Notes under the pieces: generated by a model
Told to the model about the DNA's origin: nothing
Database searches by the model: none
Seen by the model: the letters and a program-made list of their open reading frames with translations, nothing else
Assembly (NCBI GenBank): GCA_030679955.1
Contig: JAUXSF010000033.1
Coordinates: 80,789 to 144,788, forward strand
Reading direction: 5' to 3'
Length of the DNA stretch: 64,000 nucleotides
Source of the DNA: Chlamydiales bacterium
GTDB taxonomy: Bacteria; Chlamydiota; Chlamydiia; Chlamydiales; JAJFMA01
Made by a program: the position numbers and the translations under genes
In this document: positions 2,424 through 54,800 of the stretch, piece after piece
Position numbering within the stretch: the first letter of the stretch is position 1
Layout: each line of letters starts with the position of its first letter

Positions 2424-4055
2424 ATGCGGTTCTATCTTGCCTGCCTGGCAGTGATTTGTACTTTAAGCTGTTCTTTTAGCTATGCGGAGATAGATCCACC
2501 GGTTCTGTCGGTGGAGATGCCAATGCGTGACGGCGTGAAGTTGCCTACAGATCTTTATTTGCCGGAGGAGGGTGCGCAAAATCTTCCATGTATATTGATT
2601 CGCGCGCCGAATGGACGTTTGACTCATTGTAAAGCCTTCGCACCCTTGGCATTAAAGGGATATGTCGTAGCTATCCAGGATACGCGTAGCCGTATCGACA
2701 GTGAGGGTAAGACTATGCCCTATCTGGCTGATGGCTGGGGAACTCAGCAAGATGGCTATGATGCTGTACAGTGGCTAGCTAAGAGTCCCTATACTAATGG
2801 GAAAGTTGGCACATTGGGAGCTTCTGCCCAGGGTATTACACAATTGTTAATGGCGCCTTCTTGTCCGCCTAATCTTGTTTGTCAGCATATAGGCGTTGCG
2901 GCGTCCAGTATATTTGACCAAGGTATATTTGCCGGAGGGCAGCTGCGCAAGAATCAGGTTGAGCAGTGGTTAAACTATTATGCACCGCATCCTTCTGTCT
3001 TAAACGAAGTAGCCAACCAACCTTCTTATAACGATTTTTGGTCGCATTTTGATACCTGTAAGGTAGCTCATCGCGTCGAAGTACCTGCCATACATCATGG
3101 AGGGTGGTACGATACATTTTGTCAGGGAACGATAGACTCATTTTTATCGCGTCAGAAGAATGGCGGACCGGGTGCTCGTGGCAATCAGAAAATGATTATT
3201 GGCCCTTGGACACATTTTTGGCCGGAAAGCACCGATCTGGGAGATTATCCTATTCCTGTGGCGGGGCAGCAGGCTCCGGTTGACTTTTCCCCGGCTCGTT
3301 GGTTTGAATATTATCTTAAGGGTATTGAAAACGGCATAGAAGCAATACCTGCGGTTACCTACTATGTGATGGGGCCATTCGATGGAACACCATCCAGTGG
3401 TAATGTGTGGCGTACGGCCGAGACTTGGCCACCGGAAGCAACGCAGACTTCGTTATACCTAGAAGCCTCAGGGAAGTTAGTTGAGCAGCCTCCAGCTCAG
3501 GGATCGATTGATTTTTGCTACGATCCGGCTAATCCGTGTCCGACATTGGGTGGCCGTAACCTATTTCTCAAGGCCGGTCCTATGGATCAGAGACCTTTGG
3601 AGGAGCGTGAAGATGTCCTTGTCTTTACTTCTGAGCCCTTGAAGGGAGATACAGAAGTAACTGGTAGAATTACTGCTCAGGTCCTTTTCTCTACTAACGT
3701 CAAAGATACCGACGTGGTTGTTAGGCTTACGGATGTTTACCCTGATGGCACCAGTGTGTTAATTTCTGATGGTATCCGTAAGTTAAGTGACGTATTTCCA
3801 GAGGGCCATACGGTGGGTAAGCCGCGGGGACCTCGTTATATTGACGTAGATTTGTGGTCGACTAGCATGGTCTTTGCCAAAGGGCACCGCATTCGTGTAT
3901 CTATTACAGGTTCTAACTACCCACGTTTTGATCGCGCGACGAACCTTCCTAGGTATACGGTGGCTACCGAGCCTTTCCCAATCGCCAAAAATTCGGTTCA
4001 TGTTGGCGGTGTTAGGGGATCGAGGATCATTCTGCCTGTGGTTCGTAAGAGCTAG
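2424..4055 (+). CDS. secreted CocE/NonD-family (S15 X-Pro dipeptidyl-peptidase-like) alpha/beta hydrolase
   Basis: 543 aa. Signal peptide MRFYLACLAVICTLSCSFSYAE. Nucleophile-elbow-like GTLGASAQG. The length and C-terminal beta-rich domain are typical of the CocE/NonD family. Confidence 0.7.
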   Translation: MRFYLACLAVICTLSCSFSYAEIDPPVLSVEMPMRDGVKLPTDLYLPEEGAQNLPCILIRAPNGRLTHCKAFAPLALKGYVVAIQDTRSRIDSEGKTMPYLADGWGTQQDGYDAVQWLAKSPYTNGKVGTLGASAQGITQLLMAPSCPPNLVCQHIGVAASSIFDQGIFAGGQLRKNQVEQWLNYYAPHPSVLNEVANQPSYNDFWSHFDTCKVAHRVEVPAIHHGGWYDTFCQGTIDSFLSRQKNGGPGARGNQKMIIGPWTHFWPESTDLGDYPIPVAGQQAPVDFSPARWFEYYLKGIENGIEAIPAVTYYVMGPFDGTPSSGNVWRTAETWPPEATQTSLYLEASGKLVEQPPAQGSIDFCYDPANPCPTLGGRNLFLKAGPMDQRPLEEREDVLVFTSEPLKGDTEVTGRITAQVLFSTNVKDTDVVVRLTDVYPDGTSVLISDGIRKLSDVFPEGHTVGKPRGPRYIDVDLWSTSMVFAKGHRIRVSITGSNYPRFDRATNLPRYTVATEPFPIAKNSVHVGGVRGSRIILPVVRKS

Positions 4056-4059
4056 GACT

Positions 4060-4135
4060 TTTATCGCAAAGTCGCAGAGACGCCAAGGTAGAAATTTGGG
4101 GAAGTTCTTTGCGTCTTCGCGCCTTTGCGTTAAAA
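4060..4135. repeat. ACGCAAAGGCGC-family intergenic hairpin repeat (copy 1, inverted orientation)
   Basis: cgcaaag...gcagagacgc on the left. On the right ctttgcgtcttcgcgcctttgcgttaaaag, with gcgcctttgcgt at 4119-4130. The arms can pair. Confidence 0.7.
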
Positions 4136-4200
4136 GTCCTATCACCGATTGCTAAAAAAGGAAATGAGTGTTTTGATAGTCCAGAAGGGGATCTAACACT

Positions 4201-10720: not shown

Positions 10721-13027
10721 TTAGCCGCCTAAAGCAAGCTCTGAAGGTCTAATAGACAAGCCGAACCATTGATTTTCTCTAGCGTGAGCGAGGATATCAA
10801 TCTCTGCCTCATCCCTAGCTCCCTTAGCATAGCCAGCTAGAATCGCCTTGCGCTGCTCGATGACCAGAGGGAATATGAACCTATTATGCATTTCTTTTCG
10901 GAAATCAGCGATGGTCTGGCTTGGATTTTTGACGCTGCTAAGTTTGAAGTTGGGGTCTGCGCAAAGGTTATAGGCAGTAAAACATGTCCATGTTCCACAT
11001 TGATAGCCGTCGCGCTGAACACTGCTTGATTTGTCACTAGCCCTAAAGAATTTGCCGAATCTCTTTGATAGGGTATTGGCATGTTCCTTGACTACCCTTG
11101 GGACGGCTTTTGCACCCATGCTGTCATAATGTTCGATGGTTCCCTTTTCTACATCGACGATGGCGACTGACCAGTGGCTTCTTCCATGATTAATAGGTAT
11201 GGGAAACCTTGCCAATGTCTTATGACCATTGACGGTGATTGTGCGGGCATTTTCATGGGTCTCGGTTAGGAATGCTAACATCAGATTTACACAGTCGTCG
11301 TTCAACCATTTCTGCCAGTTTTCATCCATAGCGCCGTTGGTAACTAGCGCGGCCTCGACATCACGCCGACCCTCTGCGGTTAATCCGGGGGAATTCCTTA
11401 AACGGCCTGTAACTGGGTCAAGTAATGTTGACCAATGGTGAGTGTTCAGAAAATCTAAATCTGCCTTAACGTCATTAACACGTTGTTCTACCTCAAAAGC
11501 CATAGCTTGCTCAAAGAAAGGGGGCTCTTCAGAGACCACGCGTTCATTGGTGAGGCGTGCGATTACCCACGACTCAATGTTAGCCAAATAGCTATCAATT
11601 GCCTCCAGTCGTGCACTTCTAACCCATTGGGCGCTATTCATTACATTACGTTCAACGGCGCTGCGCCATTCTTGCAGGGTGTCTTGCAGGCCTATCACAT
11701 CATCGATGGACTGTTCTGCGCTGGTCACCCAGTTTTCAATCTGATCAGAAAGGAGTCGCATAGCATCTTCGCCATAGGGTTTGATGTACTGTCTTTCGGA
11801 AACGACCGGCGCTCTCGCCGGTCTGGAAGATTGCAAGGCTCGACGCCACTCCTGGATATGTGAAGCCGATCTAGCAGAAAAATAAATGATGTTAGGGCGA
11901 TCTACATAGTCCAAGAAGCGTGTCATTGCTAGCTTATTGCCCGCGATAGCGGCCTCTTCATAGGCGGAAATGATTTCGCCGGCATTAATGCGAGCGCTTT
12001 GTGCCTGTAAGAGTTCGGCCTTTTCTATTAGCAAATCTGCGGTAGCTAAATCGGGGTCTTTTCTTAATAACTCTAGAGCCGCTTTAGGATCGGCCTTACA
12101 GCCTCTTCCGTATCGCAGGAAACGTACCACATTCAATTTAGCCTCTTGGTTACCCAATTCTGTGGCTTTCAAGAAGAATTGTAGGCTCTGAGCAAGATTA
12201 TGCCCCTTGGAGAATCGCTGGCCCGCTTCATACAGAGACTGGCTTGCATCGGGCAACAATTGCAGGGCGTAAGGGCTATCTAAGCTAGCTTTTAACAGCC
12301 AATCGTTTGGTTCCGAGGGGTGGTGCTTGGCAAAGCCTTCTGATAGGGCGATCATAGCGCCCAGATTCCCTTGGTTAGCTAATTTTGTAAGCGTGGGAAT
12401 ATCATTTGTTTTGCGAGCTTGGTAGTACGCGGCGATGGGATAACCGAGGTCGCTGAAACGTCTCCAAAATTGATCTAACGCGAGATCTTTGCCGAATATA
12501 CTCTTTGCGTGATCGTCTAATGTTTTAAGAGTTTCGGGATCGCCCAGGTCCAAGTCTCTGGAAGCGGTGAGCAACGCGTAGGCGGAATCAACAAAAGCTT
12601 GTTTATCGTAGAGTTCCTTGGGGTTGCCGACCGACGAGAAGAATTTGAACAGTTCATCGTAGACAGCATGTGTTAGATCTGCCGCAGATCCGTTCACATC
12701 ACCATGCCCCCATAGAGCCCTTCCTATAGAGGTTGTTTTGTTATAGTAAGAGGTTGAGAGGCCTTGGACGCGGTCCTTTAGCTCAATTCTGCTTTTAATA
12801 TCGTTGTAGCGGACCTTCAGCCTTTTATCCTGCTCAACCAGCTTGGTAATGATTTTAAAACTGTCACTAAGTTTGTTGGATCCTATCAGGCGGTCCCAGC
12901 AGCGACCCCATAGGCCGCGTTTTGCAATAACGACATTTGAGGAATAGTTTGTGCGTTGAATAACGAACTGATGTCCATTATTTAGTTTCTGTAGTGAATT
13001 TACTATTTTTTGTAGTCTATTAATCAT
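10721..13027 (-). CDS. Sel1/TPR-repeat protein with C-terminal Ulp1-like (peptidase C48, CE clan) protease domain; candidate deubiquitinase/deSUMOylase effector
   Basis: 768 aa. Catalytic signature in canonical order and spacing: HWSVAIVD (His), EHYDSMG (Asp), QRDGYQCGTW (Gln..Cys). Sel1-like repeats occur in residues about 200-330 (LANQGNLGAMIALSEGF..., ELGNQEAKLNVVRFLRYGRGCKADPKAALELL). Confidence 0.8.
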   Translation of the reverse strand: MINRLQKIVNSLQKLNNGHQFVIQRTNYSSNVVIAKRGLWGRCWDRLIGSNKLSDSFKIITKLVEQDKRLKVRYNDIKSRIELKDRVQGLSTSYYNKTTSIGRALWGHGDVNGSAADLTHAVYDELFKFFSSVGNPKELYDKQAFVDSAYALLTASRDLDLGDPETLKTLDDHAKSIFGKDLALDQFWRRFSDLGYPIAAYYQARKTNDIPTLTKLANQGNLGAMIALSEGFAKHHPSEPNDWLLKASLDSPYALQLLPDASQSLYEAGQRFSKGHNLAQSLQFFLKATELGNQEAKLNVVRFLRYGRGCKADPKAALELLRKDPDLATADLLIEKAELLQAQSARINAGEIISAYEEAAIAGNKLAMTRFLDYVDRPNIIYFSARSASHIQEWRRALQSSRPARAPVVSERQYIKPYGEDAMRLLSDQIENWVTSAEQSIDDVIGLQDTLQEWRSAVERNVMNSAQWVRSARLEAIDSYLANIESWVIARLTNERVVSEEPPFFEQAMAFEVEQRVNDVKADLDFLNTHHWSTLLDPVTGRLRNSPGLTAEGRRDVEAALVTNGAMDENWQKWLNDDCVNLMLAFLTETHENARTITVNGHKTLARFPIPINHGRSHWSVAIVDVEKGTIEHYDSMGAKAVPRVVKEHANTLSKRFGKFFRASDKSSSVQRDGYQCGTWTCFTAYNLCADPNFKLSSVKNPSQTIADFRKEMHNRFIFPLVIEQRKAILAGYAKGARDEAEIDILAHARENQWFGLSIRPSELALGG

Positions 13028-24321: not shown

Positions 24322-24397
24322 ATGGACCTTATGGACTCGATGGACCTATTATTTTGTCCATAAGGTCTATAAGGTCCATCGAGTCCATAAGCTCCAT
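24322..24397. repeat. GTCCATAAG-family 25-bp inverted repeat (hairpin) upstream of the suf operon
   Basis: atggaccttatggactcgatggacc (24322-24346) is the reverse complement of ggtccatcgagtccataagctccat (24373-24397) with 1 mismatch. The loop itself contains gtccataaggtctataa. Confidence 0.85.
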
Positions 24398-45928: not shown

Positions 45929-45999
45929 GTGGACGTAGTGGACTGAGTGGACGTAGTGGACAAGAAAATCACTCGTCCGCTGCGTCCACCCAGTCCACT
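45922..45999. repeat. AGTGGAC word-repeat hairpin between convergent genes
   Basis: taagtggacgtagtggactgagtggacgtagtggac (four direct copies) is followed by the inverted cgtccgctgcgtccacccagtccact. It overlaps both stop codons. Confidence 0.85.
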
Positions 46000-47365
46000 A
46001 ACCTTTATACCTTGCTTGTACTTCTTCCAACGTACTGCAACCAGCCAATAGCAAAATATCTGCAATGGACATATTGCTAATCTTGCCTTGAGCATCAGGC
46101 ATCGGCACATATTTTAGATCGTAAAAGCTCTGACCAATCGCTGGCAATAGTGCACGTAGAATAGTAACCGTACCTGCTACATTGGTGAAGTCGTTGCCAT
46201 TTTCATCGGTAACCATAACCATTTGTGAAGGTTTGGTGAGATTGGAAATGGACTTCATACCTCCGACAAAGATACCCAGATCGCTGCTATGCATCATAGG
46301 CAAGTCAACTGAGCTATCACCAAACACTATTACAAAGGCATTCGGATTTTTCTGCATATAACCTGATACGAGTCCTGCTATGGCCTGGCCTTTGTCCAGT
46401 TTGCTGATCTTGACGAAGTTGAAATCTACACTACCACGTTTTGCGGGTCCGGAAGCTGGGATCCGTTGATGCGGTTCCAGAGAAGACAAGGAGTTTTCTT
46501 TGTCCAGAAGCTTCAAGTGAAGCAAAAATGTTAAATTTTTCTGCATCGTTATTGCCTCACCATCAATACCACGAGATACTTGTAGTTCAACATCAGCACC
46601 ATTACATAGCAGACGCAATTCAGGATCTAACTGAGAACGAATGCTCTCAAGCAACTCAACAAACTCATCTGGAGTCCTGGATATATCCTGGTGGGGATTG
46701 ATTAACTGGATGTTATGTAGGGCATGCATCAACGAACCTGCTATGGCAGCTTGAGGAGGCGTTCCCGTTTCAACTACACGTTCCAGAAAAACCTCTAACA
46801 ATAGTTTTGCTATTTGAAAGCTCTGATCCAAGGTAAAGTGTTCGATAATCTCTACTTCCCCGTTTGGCGCCAATTGTTGTCCACCCATAGCCCCCAAAAT
46901 ACGCACTCTTTCAGCCTTGATATCTTCAGCAAAGTGTTCTTCGAAAATTGGCTTTAGGGATGTATTCCCTCTGCGGCATTCCTCTACATTGAGATCAGAA
47001 AATACTGGGGTACCGGAAATGAATGTGCCGAAGACTTTCTCTGTCTTCAGAAGCTCCTTAGCAAGGCTGACGACGTCCTGATCCAAAGGGCGATCCGCAA
47101 GAGTGCGCATGACGCCATCGACATCGGAGATGTACAGCACGTTGTTGATAATCTCGCCATTGGCAAAGCGGTTAGGAACAGGAATGGTTACCCAGCGGGG
47201 TTGGTCGTCACTGATATTGTGCAGCTGATTGGCATCTATTGTGTAGTTCAGCGTGTCGAATTGTTTTGTCTTAGGTAGTTCAACAACTCTCTCGTGGTGA
47301 ATTGGTGTGGCCCGTACGTCTTGAACATAGTCCATGGAGCAAGCCTCTTCTTTTGAATTTTTCAT
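45998..47365 (-). CDS. HAD-IIB-like hydrolase with a large cap insertion (hypothetical phosphatase)
   Basis: HAD motif I YISDVDGV, Lys motif KLDKG, motif IV VFGDSSVDLPMM. Start uncertain: TTG 47428, ATG 47365 or ATG 47335. Confidence 0.5.
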   Translation of the reverse strand: MKNSKEEACSMDYVQDVRATPIHHERVVELPKTKQFDTLNYTIDANQLHNISDDQPRWVTIPVPNRFANGEIINNVLYISDVDGVMRTLADRPLDQDVVSLAKELLKTEKVFGTFISGTPVFSDLNVEECRRGNTSLKPIFEEHFAEDIKAERVRILGAMGGQQLAPNGEVEIIEHFTLDQSFQIAKLLLEVFLERVVETGTPPQAAIAGSLMHALHNIQLINPHQDISRTPDEFVELLESIRSQLDPELRLLCNGADVELQVSRGIDGEAITMQKNLTFLLHLKLLDKENSLSSLEPHQRIPASGPAKRGSVDFNFVKISKLDKGQAIAGLVSGYMQKNPNAFVIVFGDSSVDLPMMHSSDLGIFVGGMKSISNLTKPSQMVMVTDENGNDFTNVAGTVTILRALLPAIGQSFYDLKYVPMPDAQGKISNMSIADILLLAGCSTLEEVQARYKG

Positions 47366-48840: not shown

Positions 48841-49598
48841 TGTCTCAAGAGTTGACGATAGTTATACCCATGGCAGGCAAAGGCAGCCGCTTTGCTGAAG
48901 CTGGCTTTAAGAACCCCAAGCCCTTCATACCGGTCGAAGGCAAGCCTATGATCACTCATGTCATGGACAACCTTGACTATCCCAATGCCAAGTATGTGTT
49001 GATTGCACGTCAGGAACACTTAGATGCGGAACCTGAATGCGTGCAGCACATTCAAAATAGCTACAACGCAACTTTTATTGGAATTGATCTGCTAACTGAG
49101 GGCACAGCATGCACCATGCTTTTTGCACGGCGCTTGTGGCAGCCTGAGTCACCCTTGCTTATTGCTAATTGCGACCAGATTGTCGATGGAGGCATTCAGC
49201 CATACATTGATGACTGTTTTGAGCGCCAGTTGGACGGTTCTATCCTCACTTTTGAGGAGCCGACACTACATCCAAAGTGGTCCTATGCCAAAATTAACGC
49301 GCAGGGTTTAGTTACTGAAGTGGCAGAGAAAAAGGCGATTTCTCCATGGGCGACCGTTGGTCTTTATTTGTTCACACAAGCATCTACTTTTGTTGAATCA
49401 GCGATCGACATGATTATTCGCAATGAGCGTGTCAACAACGAGTTCTACACCTGTCCGACCTATAACTACGCCATCGAGAAGGGTAAGCGGATAGGCATCT
49501 ATAATATACCTACAAGTGCCATGCATGGCATCGGAACACCGGAAGACTTGGATGCCTACCTACTGCATCGCAACCAAGAAGTGCTATGTACGTTGTAG
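48840..49598 (+). CDS. sugar-phosphate nucleotidyltransferase-like protein, paralog 2 (canonical loop)
   Basis: IVIPMAGKGSRFAEAGFKNPKPFIPVEGKPMI, NCDQ, ATVGLYLF. ATG 48840 overlaps the preceding TAA (TAATG) and has a GGAGAG RBS. Confidence 0.7.
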   Translation: MSQELTIVIPMAGKGSRFAEAGFKNPKPFIPVEGKPMITHVMDNLDYPNAKYVLIARQEHLDAEPECVQHIQNSYNATFIGIDLLTEGTACTMLFARRLWQPESPLLIANCDQIVDGGIQPYIDDCFERQLDGSILTFEEPTLHPKWSYAKINAQGLVTEVAEKKAISPWATVGLYLFTQASTFVESAIDMIIRNERVNNEFYTCPTYNYAIEKGKRIGIYNIPTSAMHGIGTPEDLDAYLLHRNQEVLCTL

Positions 49599-50242
49599 TG
49601 CCTCTAGCCGGCCCAGACTGCTATGATGCGAAGTACGGCATTCGTCCCATGATGCCGATGGGAGAGTCTACGCTTATTCACAGCGTCCTTTCCTCTCGAT
49701 GGAATGATGTCAGCTATGTATTTGTTTTACGCGAGCATGAGAACATGCCGCGCTTACGACAATACCTTCGGGATACCTTTGTGGGGTGTCAGATAGTGGT
49801 TGTTTCCCAGCTGGCTGCTGGAGCAGCCTTTTCTGCGCTTGCAGGAATGAGTTTGGTACCCGACAATGTTCCGGTGGTAGTAGACCTTGCTGACATAGCA
49901 TTCGAGGGTAATTGCGATTTTAAAGCAGCTTTTGCCGCAGACGAGCAATTGCAGGGCATAGTTCCTTATTTTGAATCGAGTGAGCCACAATATAGCTACC
50001 TACAGCTTGATGAAGAAGGCTATCTGCTACAAGCGGTAGAGAAAAAAGTTATCTCCAACCACGCTACAGCTGGTGTTTATGCTTTTCGCAATGTAGGAGC
50101 CTATTTGCAAGCTCTAGCACGTTGTGTGCGCGATGGCGACACGTATAAGGGGCTCTATTTCGTGTGCCCGCTGTTAAACGATATGTGTGTTACAGGGGTT
50201 CCTGTGACAGTGACTGAGCAACACAGTCTGGCTTTTCATTAA
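49586..50242 (+). CDS. nucleotidyltransferase-like protein, paralog 3, degenerate loop
   Basis: 218 aa. VVPLAGPDCYD replaces the G-x-G-S-R loop. Retains the ATAGVYAF block. Overlaps paralog 2 by 13 nt. Confidence 0.55.
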   Translation: MYVVVPLAGPDCYDAKYGIRPMMPMGESTLIHSVLSSRWNDVSYVFVLREHENMPRLRQYLRDTFVGCQIVVVSQLAAGAAFSALAGMSLVPDNVPVVVDLADIAFEGNCDFKAAFAADEQLQGIVPYFESSEPQYSYLQLDEEGYLLQAVEKKVISNHATAGVYAFRNVGAYLQALARCVRDGDTYKGLYFVCPLLNDMCVTGVPVTVTEQHSLAFH

Positions 50243-50282
50243 CTAATAAGAATGGACTTCCAGGATAGGCAGGCGTATGCCT

Positions 50283-50525
50283 CTAACGCTGCGTAGCAGC
50301 AAATCTTATCTTAGCCCCTAGCCATACCCGAAAAATGAGGGTTGGCTAGGGGTAAGTTCAACAAACCGTTCGCGTTGCGGAAGCACCGCGTCTTTTCAAT
50401 GAAAGCAAATGGACAGACGCGATGCTCCGCAGCGCGTGCTCATTGATATGCTGCCCCCTAGCCAACCCTCATTTTTCGGGTATGGCTAGGGGCTAAGATA
50501 AGAATTGCTACTTTGCAGCATTAGC
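50283..50525. repeat. about 240-bp nested imperfect palindrome with perfect 49-bp arms (MITE-like or giant hairpin)
   Basis: Arm 50304-50352 (tcttatcttagcccctagccatacccgaaaaatgagggttggctagggg) is the exact reverse complement of 50455-50503. Each arm is itself a hairpin (cccctagcca...tggctagggg). An inner imperfect inverted repeat is gcgttgcggaagcaccgcgtct / agacgcgatgctccgcagcgc. Outer imperfect pairing extends to about 50283 and 50525. Confidence 0.9.
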
Positions 50526-50636
50526 TGCAGAAACACCCTTTAAAGATGTATAATTCTACTCTAGTTTGATGCGTAAGGGCCAGGCAGGATGCACCGAACG
50601 AATTTCCGCCTTAAATCGCAGAGCGATTATTCTCTC

Positions 50637-50674
50637 CCCAGCCCATTGCCATACCCGAAGGGTTGGTTGTGGGC
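50637..50674. repeat. third, degenerate copy of the gccatacccgaa...gggttgg hairpin module
   Basis: cccagcccattgccatacccgaagggttggttgtgggc shares gccatacccgaa and gggttgg with the palindrome arms. Confidence 0.6.
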
Positions 50675-50711
50675 AGTTGCATAAACATTTTACGTTTCGG
50701 CAGCATCAAGT

Positions 50712-51260
50712 CTAATCGTGCTCTCCACATGATACCTCTGTATTGGCTTCTCGATTTAAGATCTCAATAGCCTCCTCAAAGCTTTCTTCACAGATTTCGC
50801 AGAACCCAATTCCACTAGCTTTTCGCGTTTCATAGCTTATTTTTTCATTTGCAAAGATGATCAGAGCTATGAAAGGAGGAGGATAGTATTCACCGCTGGT
50901 GCGTTGAAATGCGAGCATATAGGATAGACTAGAAGGTTCAAACGGACCGTTGGTTTGCAATATAGATTTGCTCTGGTTGTCACCTAGCATGGCAATTGCC
51001 TTTTGAACTTCAGGCACAAATAGTCTCCTAGCCTCCTCCAGCTCTACCATTTGATCGCTTTTAAAGGTCACAGAAACGCACTCCCGTTTTTTACGATTAA
51101 AACAACCTTCGGCTGTTTGAAACCGCCCATTGCGTTTGTGCAAATCTTTGGCATATTTCTGTAAGCCTTTCCTGTCCCAACGCTTTCCTTCAAAGCCCTG
51201 GAGATTAGCTGAAAAGATCATGAATAAGGACGCTAATGTAAATGCCAGGGTAGAGCGCAT
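50712..51260 (-). CDS. signal-peptide protein, paralog 2 of the Rhs-adjacent pair (candidate immunity protein)
   Basis: 182 aa. Signal-like MRSTLAFTLASLFMIFSANLQG. Shares EGKRWDR.GLQ.YAKD, LFVPEV.KAIAML, EYYPPPFI, IFANEKISY and GFCEICEESFEEAIEILNREA with the neighbour. Confidence 0.5.
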   Translation of the reverse strand: MRSTLAFTLASLFMIFSANLQGFEGKRWDRKGLQKYAKDLHKRNGRFQTAEGCFNRKKRECVSVTFKSDQMVELEEARRLFVPEVQKAIAMLGDNQSKSILQTNGPFEPSSLSYMLAFQRTSGEYYPPPFIALIIFANEKISYETRKASGIGFCEICEESFEEAIEILNREANTEVSCGEHD

Positions 51261-51272
51261 GCTTAATACCTA

Positions 51273-51830
51273 TTATTTATGCTCTGCAGAAGTATCTGTA
51301 AGCATTTCTGTTTGGCTGGCTTCTCGATTTAGGATCTCAATAGCTTCCTCAAAACTCTCCTCACAGATTTCGCAGAATCCTTTGCCATTGGCGTTTCGAG
51401 TATGATAGCTTATTTTTTCATTTGCAAAGATGACCATAGTTATAAATGGGGGGGGGTAATATTCGTCATCTGGTCGATTCAGTGTGAGCGAAAAAGTTAG
51501 GTTGGTGGGACCAAAAGGACCGTTTGTGGCTAATATTGATTTTTTCTGCTTGTTTTGTAACATAGCAATTGCCTTCCGAACTTCCGGTACGAATAATTTT
51601 CTAGCCTCATCGAACTCTACCATCTGATAACTTTCAAATCTCACAGAAACCTTTTCCAGTTTACCGTTGAAAAAGCCTTCGCTCCGCTGTACCCATCCTT
51701 TACGCTTCTGTACATCTTTAGCATATTCCTGTAAGCCTCTTCTGTCCCAACGTTTTCCTTCATAGCCCTGCAGATCAGTCAAAAAGGTAATGAATAGAGA
51801 CATCAGCGTAAGTATGATCGATAAGCGCAT
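51273..51830 (-). CDS. signal-peptide protein, paralog 1, immediately downstream of the Rhs toxin (candidate immunity protein)
   Basis: 185 aa. Starts 5 nt after the Rhs stop. Signal-like MRLSIILTLMSLFITFLTDLQG. Contains a 9-nt homopolymer (51448-51456) encoding PPP. Confidence 0.5.
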   Translation of the reverse strand: MRLSIILTLMSLFITFLTDLQGYEGKRWDRRGLQEYAKDVQKRKGWVQRSEGFFNGKLEKVSVRFESYQMVEFDEARKLFVPEVRKAIAMLQNKQKKSILATNGPFGPTNLTFSLTLNRPDDEYYPPPFITMVIFANEKISYHTRNANGKGFCEICEESFEEAIEILNREASQTEMLTDTSAEHK

Positions 51831-51835
51831 TTCTA

Positions 51836-54800
51836 TTATCTGTTGTTGAGTTCTTTTAGTGCCGTTTTAGCTTCTTTGACAACTTCTTTTTTGTAGTGCT
51901 CATAGCCGTGGCAAGAGCTCGGGCGACGGTTCGATGGGGTCAGCGACCTGAAATTGACGCTGGATGATCCGCAGCGAGCTTTCATATAGCCCCAAGGGTC
52001 ACCAATTATAACGACACATTCGTTGGTGTAAAGAAGATTTGAAATACCGGCCAAATCGGAATCGTCCTCAAGCTTAGCGGATGCGGCGGTGATGCTGTGG
52101 ACAATTGTTTTGGTCTCTTTGTCGAGTTTTTCTCGAGCTCTATGTCCTGTCCACCCTCCCTTGCTGTGATCGGCGGTGACGACGTAGCCGTCTCTATCCT
52201 TTGCGATATCTGTTCCGAAGCGCAGTGCTTCGTCGGCGACTTGTGAAAGTTCTGTGTTAATGCCAAAGATAGAGAGTCCTGTGTTGAATAGGTCTGCGAC
52301 AGCCCCACAGCTGGGATAAACACAGCCGATGATGGTGACGTCTCCCATATCTTCAAACATTTCATTAATTCGCGCTTCTGCCTCGAAGCGGGATACGCAG
52401 ATGCCGTTATTCATAACCATGACATCGTTGCCTGTTCCCAGCTTAGTTTGAACATAGGGTTTGTCAAAGTACCCCTCGAGCACTGTAGTGCCGGCAAATA
52501 AGCTGCACGCATTGATTAGTGTCTGTTGGATCGTTCTGTTGGGCACTAAATGGAATACCAGGGTGGCTATCGGAGTAGCTATTTTTTCTCTTGAGGATGA
52601 CCGCCTGGAACTGTCTGGCCCCGAATATCCACAGTGACTACAGGAGCCGTTTTCATCGAGTGGCCTTCCACAGTTTGGGCATGATTCGCTGCGCAGCCCT
52701 GTGGGGTCCATATATGACAAGGGATTATTGTATACGTATGCATAAAGGTTGGGCCCATCTTGAAAGCCAATAGGATCCGGAGTAAGCCAACGGGCTGTGT
52801 CCGGATCGTAATATCTGCGTCCGAAAAGTACCCATCCGGTTTCAGGATCGTGTCGTTTGCTAGAAAATCTCCATGGGTTAATCGAGGTGCTATCCGGGTA
52901 TGCAGTTTCTTCTCCAAAAGCTGTGTGGCGGTAGAATTCTGTGACTTGACCTGAATCTGCCGCCAGCAACACAGCTACGTTTCCGCAGTGATCATGAATG
53001 GGCACGTAGACCTTGCTATCTATTTCGATGGCAATGGCTGCTCCTATTTCCGCTCCCTTACCCTGGCCAAGGACGCGCAACTGTTGTATCGTGCCATCAG
53101 GATGGGTAGCGCTAATTTCCACTTGATCGCAATAGAGGTAGAGGGTAGTTTCCGAACCTTTTTTGCTGATGCGACGATTGAAGGGATCGTAGCGATATTC
53201 CCATTTGCTACCATCTTGGGATTCAACTTCGATAAGGCGTCCTAGCACGTCGTAGCGATAGCGGTTTTCTCCACAAGCTATTCGGTTGCCCTGGACATCG
53301 TAGCTAAAATGGGTGTCGCCTTGCTGAAGAAGCCTATTAAGGGTATCGACGACACAAACAGAGCTGTCCATGCTTAAACGGTTATGTAGAGAATCATAAC
53401 TATAGTTGTGGTTACTAAGTCCTGTCTCGTCGGTTAGTTGATTTAGTGGGTCGAAGGCAAACTGACAAGAGGCTATGTCAAGGGGGTCGCGTCTAGTAAT
53501 CGACAGTAGATTGCTTATAGCATCGTAGCCACCTTGTGGGATTTGCTCTTCAAAGCAAGGATGCGATAAATGTTTCAATCGGCCGAGGGTGTCCCATGAA
53601 TAATGTAGATCACCTCCATTGCCCACCAGCTGTGCCTCAATTAGTTTCCCTGAAAGATCCCTCTTTAAGTAGCGATGTGAGTAGGAAATGGCGCCGGATG
53701 CGTCCAGTCGATGTACATCCGTTAGGTTAGTGGCGTCGAGCCTATAACCTATCCCCGAGCCATCGGGCAGATCTATCTGCGTGACTCGTGCAAGTGCGTC
53801 GTATTGGTAAGATAATGCAAGACCGGTTGCAAGAGTTTCCTTTGTCATGCGGTTGGCGTGGTCGTAAACTCTGGATGTCGTTTCAGCGCTTGCGGCATCG
53901 AATACAGAAAGTAGATTTCCATTGGAATCATAGGAATACGAATAGTCAATAGAGCCATCAGAAGAGGTGTGGTGTGATAAGCGGTTAAAGGCGTCATATG
54001 CATATCTTAAAATAATACCACTAGGAAGAATGTCCGATTCACGTTGGCCATGTACGTTATAGCTGTAGTAAGTTTGACGTAACAAGGGTGTGCCAACCGC
54101 TTCACGGATGACGACCAGTCGCCCAAGGGTGTCATATTGCCACTCGGTGATAACAGTACGATCTGGGGTGTTGTTGGCCTTAACCGTATCAAGACGGATT
54201 TCAGGCTTACCCAATGCGTTGTATTTGAGTTCAGTTTTACTCAGCTCGTTACCAAAGGGATCCTTCTTAATGATACAAGCTGGGTTGCCCAATGTGTCGT
54301 GTGTGGTTATTGTTTGCCTTCCAAGAGCATCCACAAGTGTTACTATAAGCCTGCCGTTGTATTCATAGTGGAACAGGGTTTCATTGCCATCAGCATCGAC
54401 AATTTTCGTAGGCTCTCCGAAGGGATTGTATTCAGTGAGCGTTGTAGAAGGACCTTGTTCAAAATGTCTTGTGACTGCTGAACGGTTGCCCTGCAAGTCA
54501 TATTCAAAATTTACTTGGTTTAATCTGGTATTGAAAGCATCTTCTACGCGTTCTTCAACCACTCGATTTAATAGGTCAAATTCTTGGATGGTAATTCGTA
54601 CGTTGTCCTCTTCTGGCCCAATCCATTGAATGGTTTTGAATTTTCTACCGAGCCCATCATACTCAAAGCGTGTCCAACCTTCGGGTTTAAGGATGTGTGT
54701 TAAACGTCCGGCACCGTCATAGCGATAAGAGGTAACGTTGCCGTTTGCATCTGTTTCCGAAGTAATTAGAAAGCTCTTATAGGTGGCGGATGTCTTGGCT

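Follow-up and report, generated by a model that had tools for sequence, protein, structure and literature searches.

An extragenic near-palindrome built of three-hairpin repeat units beside an Rhs locus in a Chlamydiales bacterium

What is a near-palindrome of 243 bp doing between the 3' ends of two converging operons in a chlamydia? The question is raised by positions 50283-50525 of a 64,000-nt stretch of contig JAUXSF010000033.1 (Chlamydiales bacterium, assembly GCA_030679955.1), which was analysed as a whole and is called here the window; coordinates are those of the window unless another sequence is named. A first-pass annotation, made from the sequence alone, had described the element as a nested palindrome and had proposed for it a mobile or repetitive extragenic element, a very strong bidirectional terminator or a structured RNA. 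By comparison with what has been described in other bacteria, it is best filed with the extragenic palindromes, but it is longer, bears three hairpins per unit, occurs at one apparent locus and belongs to a phylum without known elements of this kind. As to its role, we tentatively favour a reading that is plausible, if somewhat short of probable: a cluster resembling repetitive extragenic palindromic sequences (REP), bacterial interspersed mosaic elements (BIME) or the REP doublets called REPINs, which would act as a two-way barrier at the 3' ends of transcripts.

The palindrome is real and far beyond chance. Its arms, 50304-50352 and 50455-50503, are exact reverse complements at 49 of 49 positions, as had been reported, and the identity ends abruptly on both sides (A against T at 50303, T against G at 50353). 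By our own arithmetic, about 1e-22 exact inverted pairs of 49 nt lying within 400 nt of each other would be expected by chance in 64 kb. Each arm carries CCCCTAGCCA-N18-TGGCTAGGGG, and the stem-loop proposed for it was recovered on folding as a 14-bp stem with one bulged T and a 9-nt loop. The central inverted repeat and the weaker outward pairing of the earlier description were also found: the first is imperfect and joins 50382-50398 to 50410-50426, and the second joins 50278-50381 to 50426-50529, that is, arms of 104 nt that are 82% complementary. Folding of 50270-50540 as RNA, which had been suggested for both strands, gave -176.7 kcal/mol on the plus strand and -189.2 kcal/mol on the minus strand (z = -20.5 and -22.6, respectively), and none of 200 shuffles was as stable. 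It is by far the largest inverted repeat of the window.

The region does not look like a gene. No open reading frame (ORF) longer than 49 aa overlaps it, which agrees with the earlier claim that no ORF explains the element, and the 49-nt core has stop codons in five of its six frames, the sixth stopping 3 nt past the core. The Rfam scan of the window returned only three tRNAs, all elsewhere, and no family at the palindrome, where the best local match was to a eukaryotic long noncoding RNA model at E = 1.7, below the gathering threshold; ARAGORN found no tRNA or tmRNA there. Since tblastn revealed no decayed remnants of the neighbouring genes in the gap, the idea of a decayed gene was dropped.

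Behind the palindrome there is a smaller repeated unit. Three alternately oriented copies of an extragenic unit of ~110 nt, named L (+), R (-) and C3 (+), fill the 470-nt gap between the flanking genes, and each of them folds alone into three hairpins, H1-H2-H3 (z = -4.7, -3.0 and -3.7). The 243-bp palindrome results from the tail-to-tail arrangement of L and R alone, while R and C3 stand head-to-head across a spacer of 85 nt. The structure and all coordinates of the first-pass annotation were right, but the term "nested palindrome" hid the real unit, which is the three-hairpin copy. The features of the locus are as follows.

50283-50525, no strand: whole near-palindrome (243 bp), units L and R tail-to-tail
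50284-50394, plus strand: unit L, with H1 at 50287-50301, H2 at 50314-50353 and H3 at 50371-50390, followed by TCTTTTC
50304-50352, plus strand: 49-nt core of L, which contains H2, exact reverse complement of 50455-50503
50414-50523, minus strand: unit R, with H1 at 50506-50520, H2 at 50454-50493 and H3 at 50418-50436
50455-50503, minus strand: 49-nt core of R, identical to the core of L
50526-50610, no strand: head-to-head spacer between R and C3, read directly; no promoter-like site in it passes the scan
50611-50714, plus strand: unit C3, a degenerate third copy that adjoins the stop of the 182-aa gene
50614-50628, 50641-50674 and 50691-50710: hairpins of C3, namely H1, H2 with its loop shortened to GAA, and a remnant of H3

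H1 is a stem of 5-6 bp closed by a triloop (GCTGC-GTA-GCAGC in L), H2 is a stem of 14-15 bp with the conserved bulged T, and H3 is a CGCG-TGC stem with a GGAA loop and then a T-rich run; in L it reads CGCG-T-TGC-GGAA-GCA-C-CGCG, then TCTTTTC. A covariance model built from the three-way alignment of L, R and C3 gave exactly three full-length matches, all at the palindrome locus: L at 50274-50410 (+) with 153.9 bits, R at 50398-50533 (-) with 145.6 bits and C3 at 50601-50730 (+) with 121.7 bits. The third degenerate copy of the arm module that had been noticed at 50637-50674 therefore exists, but it is larger than was claimed and covers the whole half-palindrome, about 50601-50730; by blastn, C3 is 69% identical to the left half-palindrome over 81 nt.

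The three copies have not diverged evenly. L and R are identical at 49/49 positions of the core and at 44/65 (68%) outside it, and a perfect run of 49 nt under uniform divergence to 68% has a probability of about 5e-9. The cores of L and C3 share 33 of 43 positions plus a 6-nt gap, which corresponds to a deletion in C3, so that the doublet L-R is better conserved than the singlet C3. The flanks of the three copies are about 35-50% diverged. Outside the core, the differences between L and R fall on 3 of 27 paired columns and on 18 of 38 unpaired ones (Fisher p = 0.003). The divergence of C3 is as high in stems as elsewhere; its H1 is rebuilt in another sequence, AATCGC-AGA-GCGATT, with four pairs changed on both sides, its H2 stays paired through one double change and two G-U pairs, and H3 has decayed. 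The top of the H2 stem (GCCATACCCGA..AGGGTTGG) and the bulged T are invariant in all three copies. Pairing holds in 92.9% of the cells over the unit structure and falls to 29-47% if the partners are slid, and there are five double-changed pairs (four in H1 and one in H2), a value reached in 2 of 500 shuffles.

It is possible to ask from the same alignment which pairing is maintained. The long-range pairing between L and R outside the core gives no sign of maintenance: 14 of the 25 counted differences are transversions, and those compatible with wobble are split 5:5 between the strands. On these grounds, selection appears to act on the three hairpins of each ~110-nt copy and not on the long-range pairing. 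Within the units, 5 G-U cells against 2 A-C cells favour the sense strand, an excess that is not significant, and C3 folds with z = -3.65 in sense against z = -1.42 in antisense; this strand bias is no more than suggestive. The perfect 49-nt core may be a recent gene-conversion tract between inverted copies or may reflect a strong constraint on H2, and C3 would be a decaying extra copy.

Considering that each unit presents its sense strand to the operon that arrives from its side, each transcript would end in H1-H2-H3. The NTP-transferase transcript would end in L and the transcript of the Rhs operon in R, where the stack of hairpins would halt or weaken read-through and would shield the 3' ends from exonucleases; in this manner a housekeeping glycan operon would be insulated from a newly acquired toxin island. 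Unit L begins 40 nt after the stop codon of the plus-strand operon, at a convergent junction, and the terminator scan flagged H3 of L with its TCTTTTC as terminator-like on the plus strand (TCTTTTCAAT). On the minus strand, only H1 of R was flagged (ATTCTTATCT). The other two convergent junctions with spacers in the window, at 34220-34287 and 45936-46000, also bear long hairpins. In E. coli, REP/BIME clusters attenuate read-through and protect 3' ends (bioRxiv 10.64898/2026.03.23.713779; PMC3733652). REPs work as terminator and mRNA stabiliser and, between convergent genes, are accompanied by raised expression of both (bioRxiv 10.64898/2026.03.23.713779), and REP dimers, many of which lie between convergent ORFs, may fold separately or as one large stem-loop (PMC3733652).

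Several points weigh against such a barrier. H3 of R is followed by TCTGTCCATTT, a poor U-tract that the terminator scan did not flag, H2 is the strongest hairpin and has no U-tract after it, and a decent T-run is seen only at H3 of L. The transcript from the Rhs side crosses C3 in antisense before it reaches R, and a terminator could be far shorter than 243 bp. Only three sequences underlie the structural statistics, and they are also the ones from which the structure was derived. In quasi-palindromes, compensatory changes can also arise by template-switch mutation without selection. The perfect 49-nt core fits a mobile element equally well.

The window holds four more long intergenic hairpins, at 4053-4141, 24322-24397, 34220-34287 and 45936-46000, with arms of 26-35 nt. 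Their RNA folds range from -44 to -54 kcal/mol (z from -6 to -10), and they have no canonical 3' U-tract. They are unrelated in sequence to the palindrome and to each other; two lie at convergent junctions, and two consist of short tandem motifs (ATGGAC, GTGGAC) and their inverted copies.

The claimed context of the palindrome, a convergent junction between the NTP-transferase operon (+) and the Rhs locus (-), holds on closer analysis, and the neighbouring features are given here.

49586-50242, plus strand: 218-aa gene, last of the plus-strand operon, a diverged NTP-transferase-like paralog with locus tag Q8K75_09570
50712-51830, minus strand: tandem orphan paralogs of 182 aa and 185 aa (50712-51260 and 51273-51830), 66% identical, the last genes of the Rhs operon
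51836-57343, minus strand: Rhs repeat protein of 1835 aa, whose operon reaches the palindrome side at 50712
50243-59052, no strand: lineage-specific segment with the repeats, the two orphan paralogs, Rhs, a WavE fragment and a ParE/DUF6290 module

The plus-strand operon, which stops at 50242, is formed by a HAD hydrolase, two NTP-transferases and the 218-aa protein. The last of these has no Pfam match, is 22-25% identical to the two NTP-transferases just upstream and is 100% identical to Q8K75_09570, a hypothetical protein on a 221-kb contig of a metagenome-assembled genome (MAG) named Chlamydiales bacterium. As the next annotated gene, Q8K75_09575, comes directly after Q8K75_09570, the public record annotates nothing at the palindrome. 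The N-terminus of the orphan paralogs on the other side resembles a signal peptide, and among 5.8 billion proteins no homolog of them was found beyond this MAG. Their position after Rhs makes them probable immunity proteins, but in that case one would not expect a secretion signal. Further along the segment, 57487-58430 carries a fragment of WavE (PF07507), of lipopolysaccharide synthesis, without its N-terminal part, and 58471-58979 a ParE/DUF6290 toxin-antitoxin pair.

Two syntenic relatives, L028 (SRR8404394) and L029 (JGI 3300053033), have the same operon of HAD hydrolase, NTP-transferases and 218-aa protein. In L028 this operon runs straight into a SnoaL_2 gene and a GT2-GT2-ABC2 cluster, and in L029 one unrelated 210-aa orphan gene (L029 5472-6104) stands between the 218-aa and SnoaL_2 genes; the SnoaL_2 proteins of the relatives are 56% and 66% identical to that of the window. 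Since both relatives join the 218-aa operon to the SnoaL_2 cluster, the 8.8 kb of 50243-59052 are lineage-specific, and the island boundary that the first-pass annotation had suspected is supported by two genomes that lack the segment. The different orphan gene in L029 points to the junction as a recurrent site for accessory DNA. From the comparison of these sequences, the junction between the 218-aa and SnoaL_2 genes is a variable spot with the palindrome at its left edge, and no analogous palindrome was found at the same junction in L028 or L029. Otherwise the window consists of ordinary chromosome, with rpsB-tsf-pyrH-frr, the suf operon and a penicillin-binding protein gene among its contents.

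The sample of origin contains three Rhs paralogs that are 43-44% identical: the one of the window (51836-57343), L032 1324-6816 and L033 10001-14434. They make up a polymorphic-toxin repertoire that is unexpected for a chlamydia, and all carriers are named as Chlamydiales MAG. The gene after the L032 paralog is a distant kin of the 182-aa gene (22% identity, E = 5e-4). Elsewhere in the window, 10721-13027 encodes a 768-aa protein with a protease domain of Ulp1 type (Peptidase_C48), which looks like a candidate for an effector directed to eukaryotes.

A key aspect is whether the unit has further copies. With blastn and the covariance model, none was found in the window outside 50274-50730. There was none either in the 8 kb beyond its right end, nor in L032 and L033 (28 kb from the same sample with the paralogous Rhs genes), which are tied to the source by common sample and organism name only. 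The same-sample sequence covered amounts to about 100 kb; no second locus in it excludes the densities of REP-rich genomes (about 1 per 5-13 kb), and a family of fewer than about 60-90 copies in the source genome is compatible with this negative. Among the 185,579 species genomes of GTDB (one per species, the source genome not being among them) no relative was found: a scan with CCCCTAGCCA-N8-30-TGGCTAGGGG gave 25 scattered single matches with unrelated loops and flanks, for a chance estimate of about 12. In IMG/VR there were 0 matches with one pattern and 7 unrelated ones with the other, and in the JGI metagenomes the invariant core, GCCATACCCGA-N0-8-AGGGTTGG, gave 35 matches, all with unrelated flanks, as by chance. 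By blastn, plasmids and phages held no related copy and the E. coli genomes no match.

The search for copies, target-site duplications and empty sites that had been proposed therefore yielded no other copy, only a CT repeat as flanking duplication and no empty site for the element alone, and a dispersed family of REPs or of miniature inverted-repeat transposable elements (MITEs) is without positive evidence. Of the earlier suggestion of a MITE-like or REP-like element, the anatomy of REP/BIME type fits; for the dispersed family, no further copy was found in the collections searched. Three other associations were dropped: with the HIP1 repeats of cyanobacteria, GCGATCGC not being enriched; with Rhs loci in general, two paralogous Rhs loci of the same sample being without the unit; and with the 182-aa gene as a travelling companion, this gene having no homolog outside this MAG.

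The locus was also seen in a second assembly, the Logan contigs of SRR13727519 with k=31 (L026 and L027). They agree with the window at every base and confirm both junctions between flank and arm, but end within the core, at ...CTTAGCCCCTAGCCA (window 50324) and ...CCCCTAGCC (window 50484). These stops lie 21 and 20 nt into the 49-nt core, on either side exactly where the 5' stem of H2 ends, and the 102-nt centre is seen in no second assembly. Taking into account that the L/R repeat alone should allow a k=31 contig to run 30 nt into the core, the breaks come about 10 nt sooner than expected; a drop in coverage could cause them, or heterogeneity of the population at the hairpin. The palindrome breaks short-k assemblies, besides being unannotated in the public record. 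That the MAG assembler made it as a fold-back chimera is the most improbable of the explanations weighed, even though the only other assembly of the sample breaks at the element and lacks its centre: such a chimera would be perfect, whereas outside the core these halves share only 68% identity, and both are homologous to C3. The independently reproduced junctions argue in the same direction, and both flanks are neighbours in the relatives. Scarcely more probable is an invertible switch, in which the 49-bp inverted repeats would be recombination sites that flip the 102-bp centre and are kept identical by recombination. Perfect arms beside diverged flanks would be expected of it, and the Logan breaks inside the arm could reflect mixed orientations in the population. 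Nevertheless, the centre (50353-50454) has no promoter-like site and is itself quasi-palindromic, so that flipping would change little; the element lies between two gene 3' ends, and no invertase or recombinase was seen nearby among the ORFs scanned. The comparison with invertons was rejected for this reason, the inverted repeats notwithstanding.

A non-autonomous mobile element deserves more weight, although we consider it on the unlikely side. L and R would form a REPIN-like doublet, or a palindromic MITE over the whole length, of low copy number and confined to this genome, copied in trans by a REP-associated tyrosine transposase (RAYT), an IS200-type or another transposase, and C3 would be a decayed singlet. 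The anatomy agrees with that by which REPINs are defined (PMC3116915), with two invariant inverted ends over imperfect palindromes and a less-conserved spacer that pairs. The doublet is better conserved than the singlet (49/49 against 33/43 plus the 6-nt gap), as in PMC3116915, H2 keeps its bulged T, and the orientations alternate as in a cluster. The 49-nt perfect core in copies 68% identical (probability about 5e-9 under uniform divergence) would also be in line with it. REP families often have 20-100 units or fewer (PMC3733652), with which 0 extra copies in about 100 kb are compatible. Opposed to mobility are the failure to find a second copy in the window, L032/L033 or the 8 kb beyond, or any copy in the GTDB species genomes, JGI metagenomes, IMG/VR, plasmids and phages, and the absence of a Y1 transposase from 33 of the roughly 50 ORFs of the window, those examined with Pfam. 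The H2 stem lacks an adjoining GTAG or CGTC tag, and with 243 bp the element is 2-3 times as long as the P. fluorescens GI REPIN (71 bp between invariant 16-mers). The only flanking direct repeat is CT (50281-50282 and 50526-50527), with a chance of 1/16, and the relatives lack the whole 8.8-kb segment, hence there is no clean empty site. A functionless scar, left by local duplications, both inverted and direct, at the insertion or rearrangement of the Rhs island and followed by gene conversion over 49 nt, is unlikely. It would explain that all copies lie in one 470-nt gap at the edge of the lineage-specific segment and that no relatives of the element were found in the collections searched; the neighbouring genes are themselves tandem duplicates, and the same junction holds a different orphan gene in L029. 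On a scar, however, substitutions would not be expected to avoid stems (p = 0.003), nor H1 of C3 to be kept by four double compensatory changes, and the copies are old (flanks about 35-50% diverged), yet the hairpins persist. A little less likely than the scar is that the 49-nt core serves as recognition hairpin of an enzyme acting on single-stranded DNA, such as a RAYT-like HUH transposase or another hairpin-binding recombinase, or as a landing pad for accessory cassettes. Small RNA genes, each ~110-nt unit with its own promoter and H3 as terminator, and with R and C3 diverging from the 85-nt spacer, are quite improbable. Their three-hairpin fold does end in a hairpin and a T-run, the wobble (5 G-U against 2 A-C cells) and the fold of C3 are better in sense, and a TATAAT hexamer stands at 50549-50554 (+). 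The scan, however, gave no promoter-like site upstream of any unit, L lies only 40 nt past a stop codon, no Rfam match and no conservation beyond this genome were found, and the G-U excess is not significant.

If the element is a 3'-end barrier, an uncultured chlamydia would use a home-grown, REP-like, duplicated hairpin module to keep a core glycan operon insulated from a new Rhs toxin island, and the four other long intergenic hairpins of the window point to a wider habit of this genome. If it is mobile, REPIN-type elements extend to Chlamydiota and provide a marker for within-genome dynamics in a group without genetics. A recognition hairpin for an enzyme of single-stranded DNA would make it the first REPIN-type replicator described in Chlamydiota. 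As a landing pad, it would imply that Rhs tip and immunity genes and the toxin-antitoxin module are exchanged at the variable junction and that the early Logan breaks at the H2 stem reflect real population heterogeneity.

Among known systems, the attC sites of integrons share with the palindrome an imperfect palindrome with extrahelical T, beside small orphan genes and a ParE module. This candidate was rejected: GTTCAAC at 50356-50362 fits R'' (RYYYAAC), but its mirror partner is ATTGATA and not GTTRRRY, the outer ends read CTCTAAC and CATTAG, no integrase was found among the ORFs scanned, and a 5.5-kb Rhs gene is not a cassette. Like bidirectional terminators, the element is placed between converging 3' ends, with hairpins on both strands and a T-run at H3 of L; it differs from them in being about five times larger, with six hairpins, duplicated units and strongest stems without U-tracts. 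The palindromic MITEs (ERIC/IRU, Correia/NEMIS, Rickettsia RPE, Yersinia YPAL) are intergenic, measure 100-250 bp, fold as a long RNA hairpin and can alter the stability of flanking mRNA; their defining traits are a dispersal in many copies, inverted repeats at the ends and duplication of the target. The present palindrome falls in their size range, is intergenic, folds as a long RNA hairpin and has inverted ends, but dispersed copies and a target duplication were not found.

The host itself, a chlamydia, sets the element apart from the REPINs, and to our knowledge no chlamydial REP family has been described. The REP survey in PMC3733652 mentions Chlamydiales solely within the Planctomycetes-Verrucomicrobia-Chlamydiae (PVC) superphylum. 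In a REPIN, two inverted conserved ends each overlap an imperfect palindrome, and the spacer between them allows the entire element to fold as a hairpin (PMC3116915, Bertels & Rainey 2011). The element shares with it the conserved inverted ends over imperfect palindromes, the looser spacer that pairs into a long hairpin, the extragenic position and a nearby singlet (C3) more decayed than the doublet. Unlike the P. fluorescens GI REPIN, with its 71 bp between invariant 16-mers (PMC3116915), it has 243 bp, an invariant core of 49 nt instead of 16 nt, and two extra hairpins, H1 and H3, in each half; a second locus was not found in about 100 kb, nor a RAYT among the ORFs scanned. REP stem-loops bear a GTAG or CGTC tetranucleotide at one end (PMC3733652). 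Such a tag is absent at H2, whose 5' flank is CTTAG and whose 3' flank is TAAG in L or GCAG in R; GTAG is present only across the H1 loop, and CGTC, which in C3 reads AGTC, overlaps H3 of L and R at its 3' end. Compared with the REP, a single stem-loop of 20-40 nt, the unit is of ~110 nt with three hairpins, and its apparent copy number is one locus. In the REP dimers and BIMEs of proteobacteria the spacers measure 20-100 bp and may be structured (PMC3733652). It is with these that the units agree in their alternation, head-to-head and tail-to-tail, in their place between convergent ORFs and, in the role that we propose for them, as a putative terminator and stabiliser of 3' ends.

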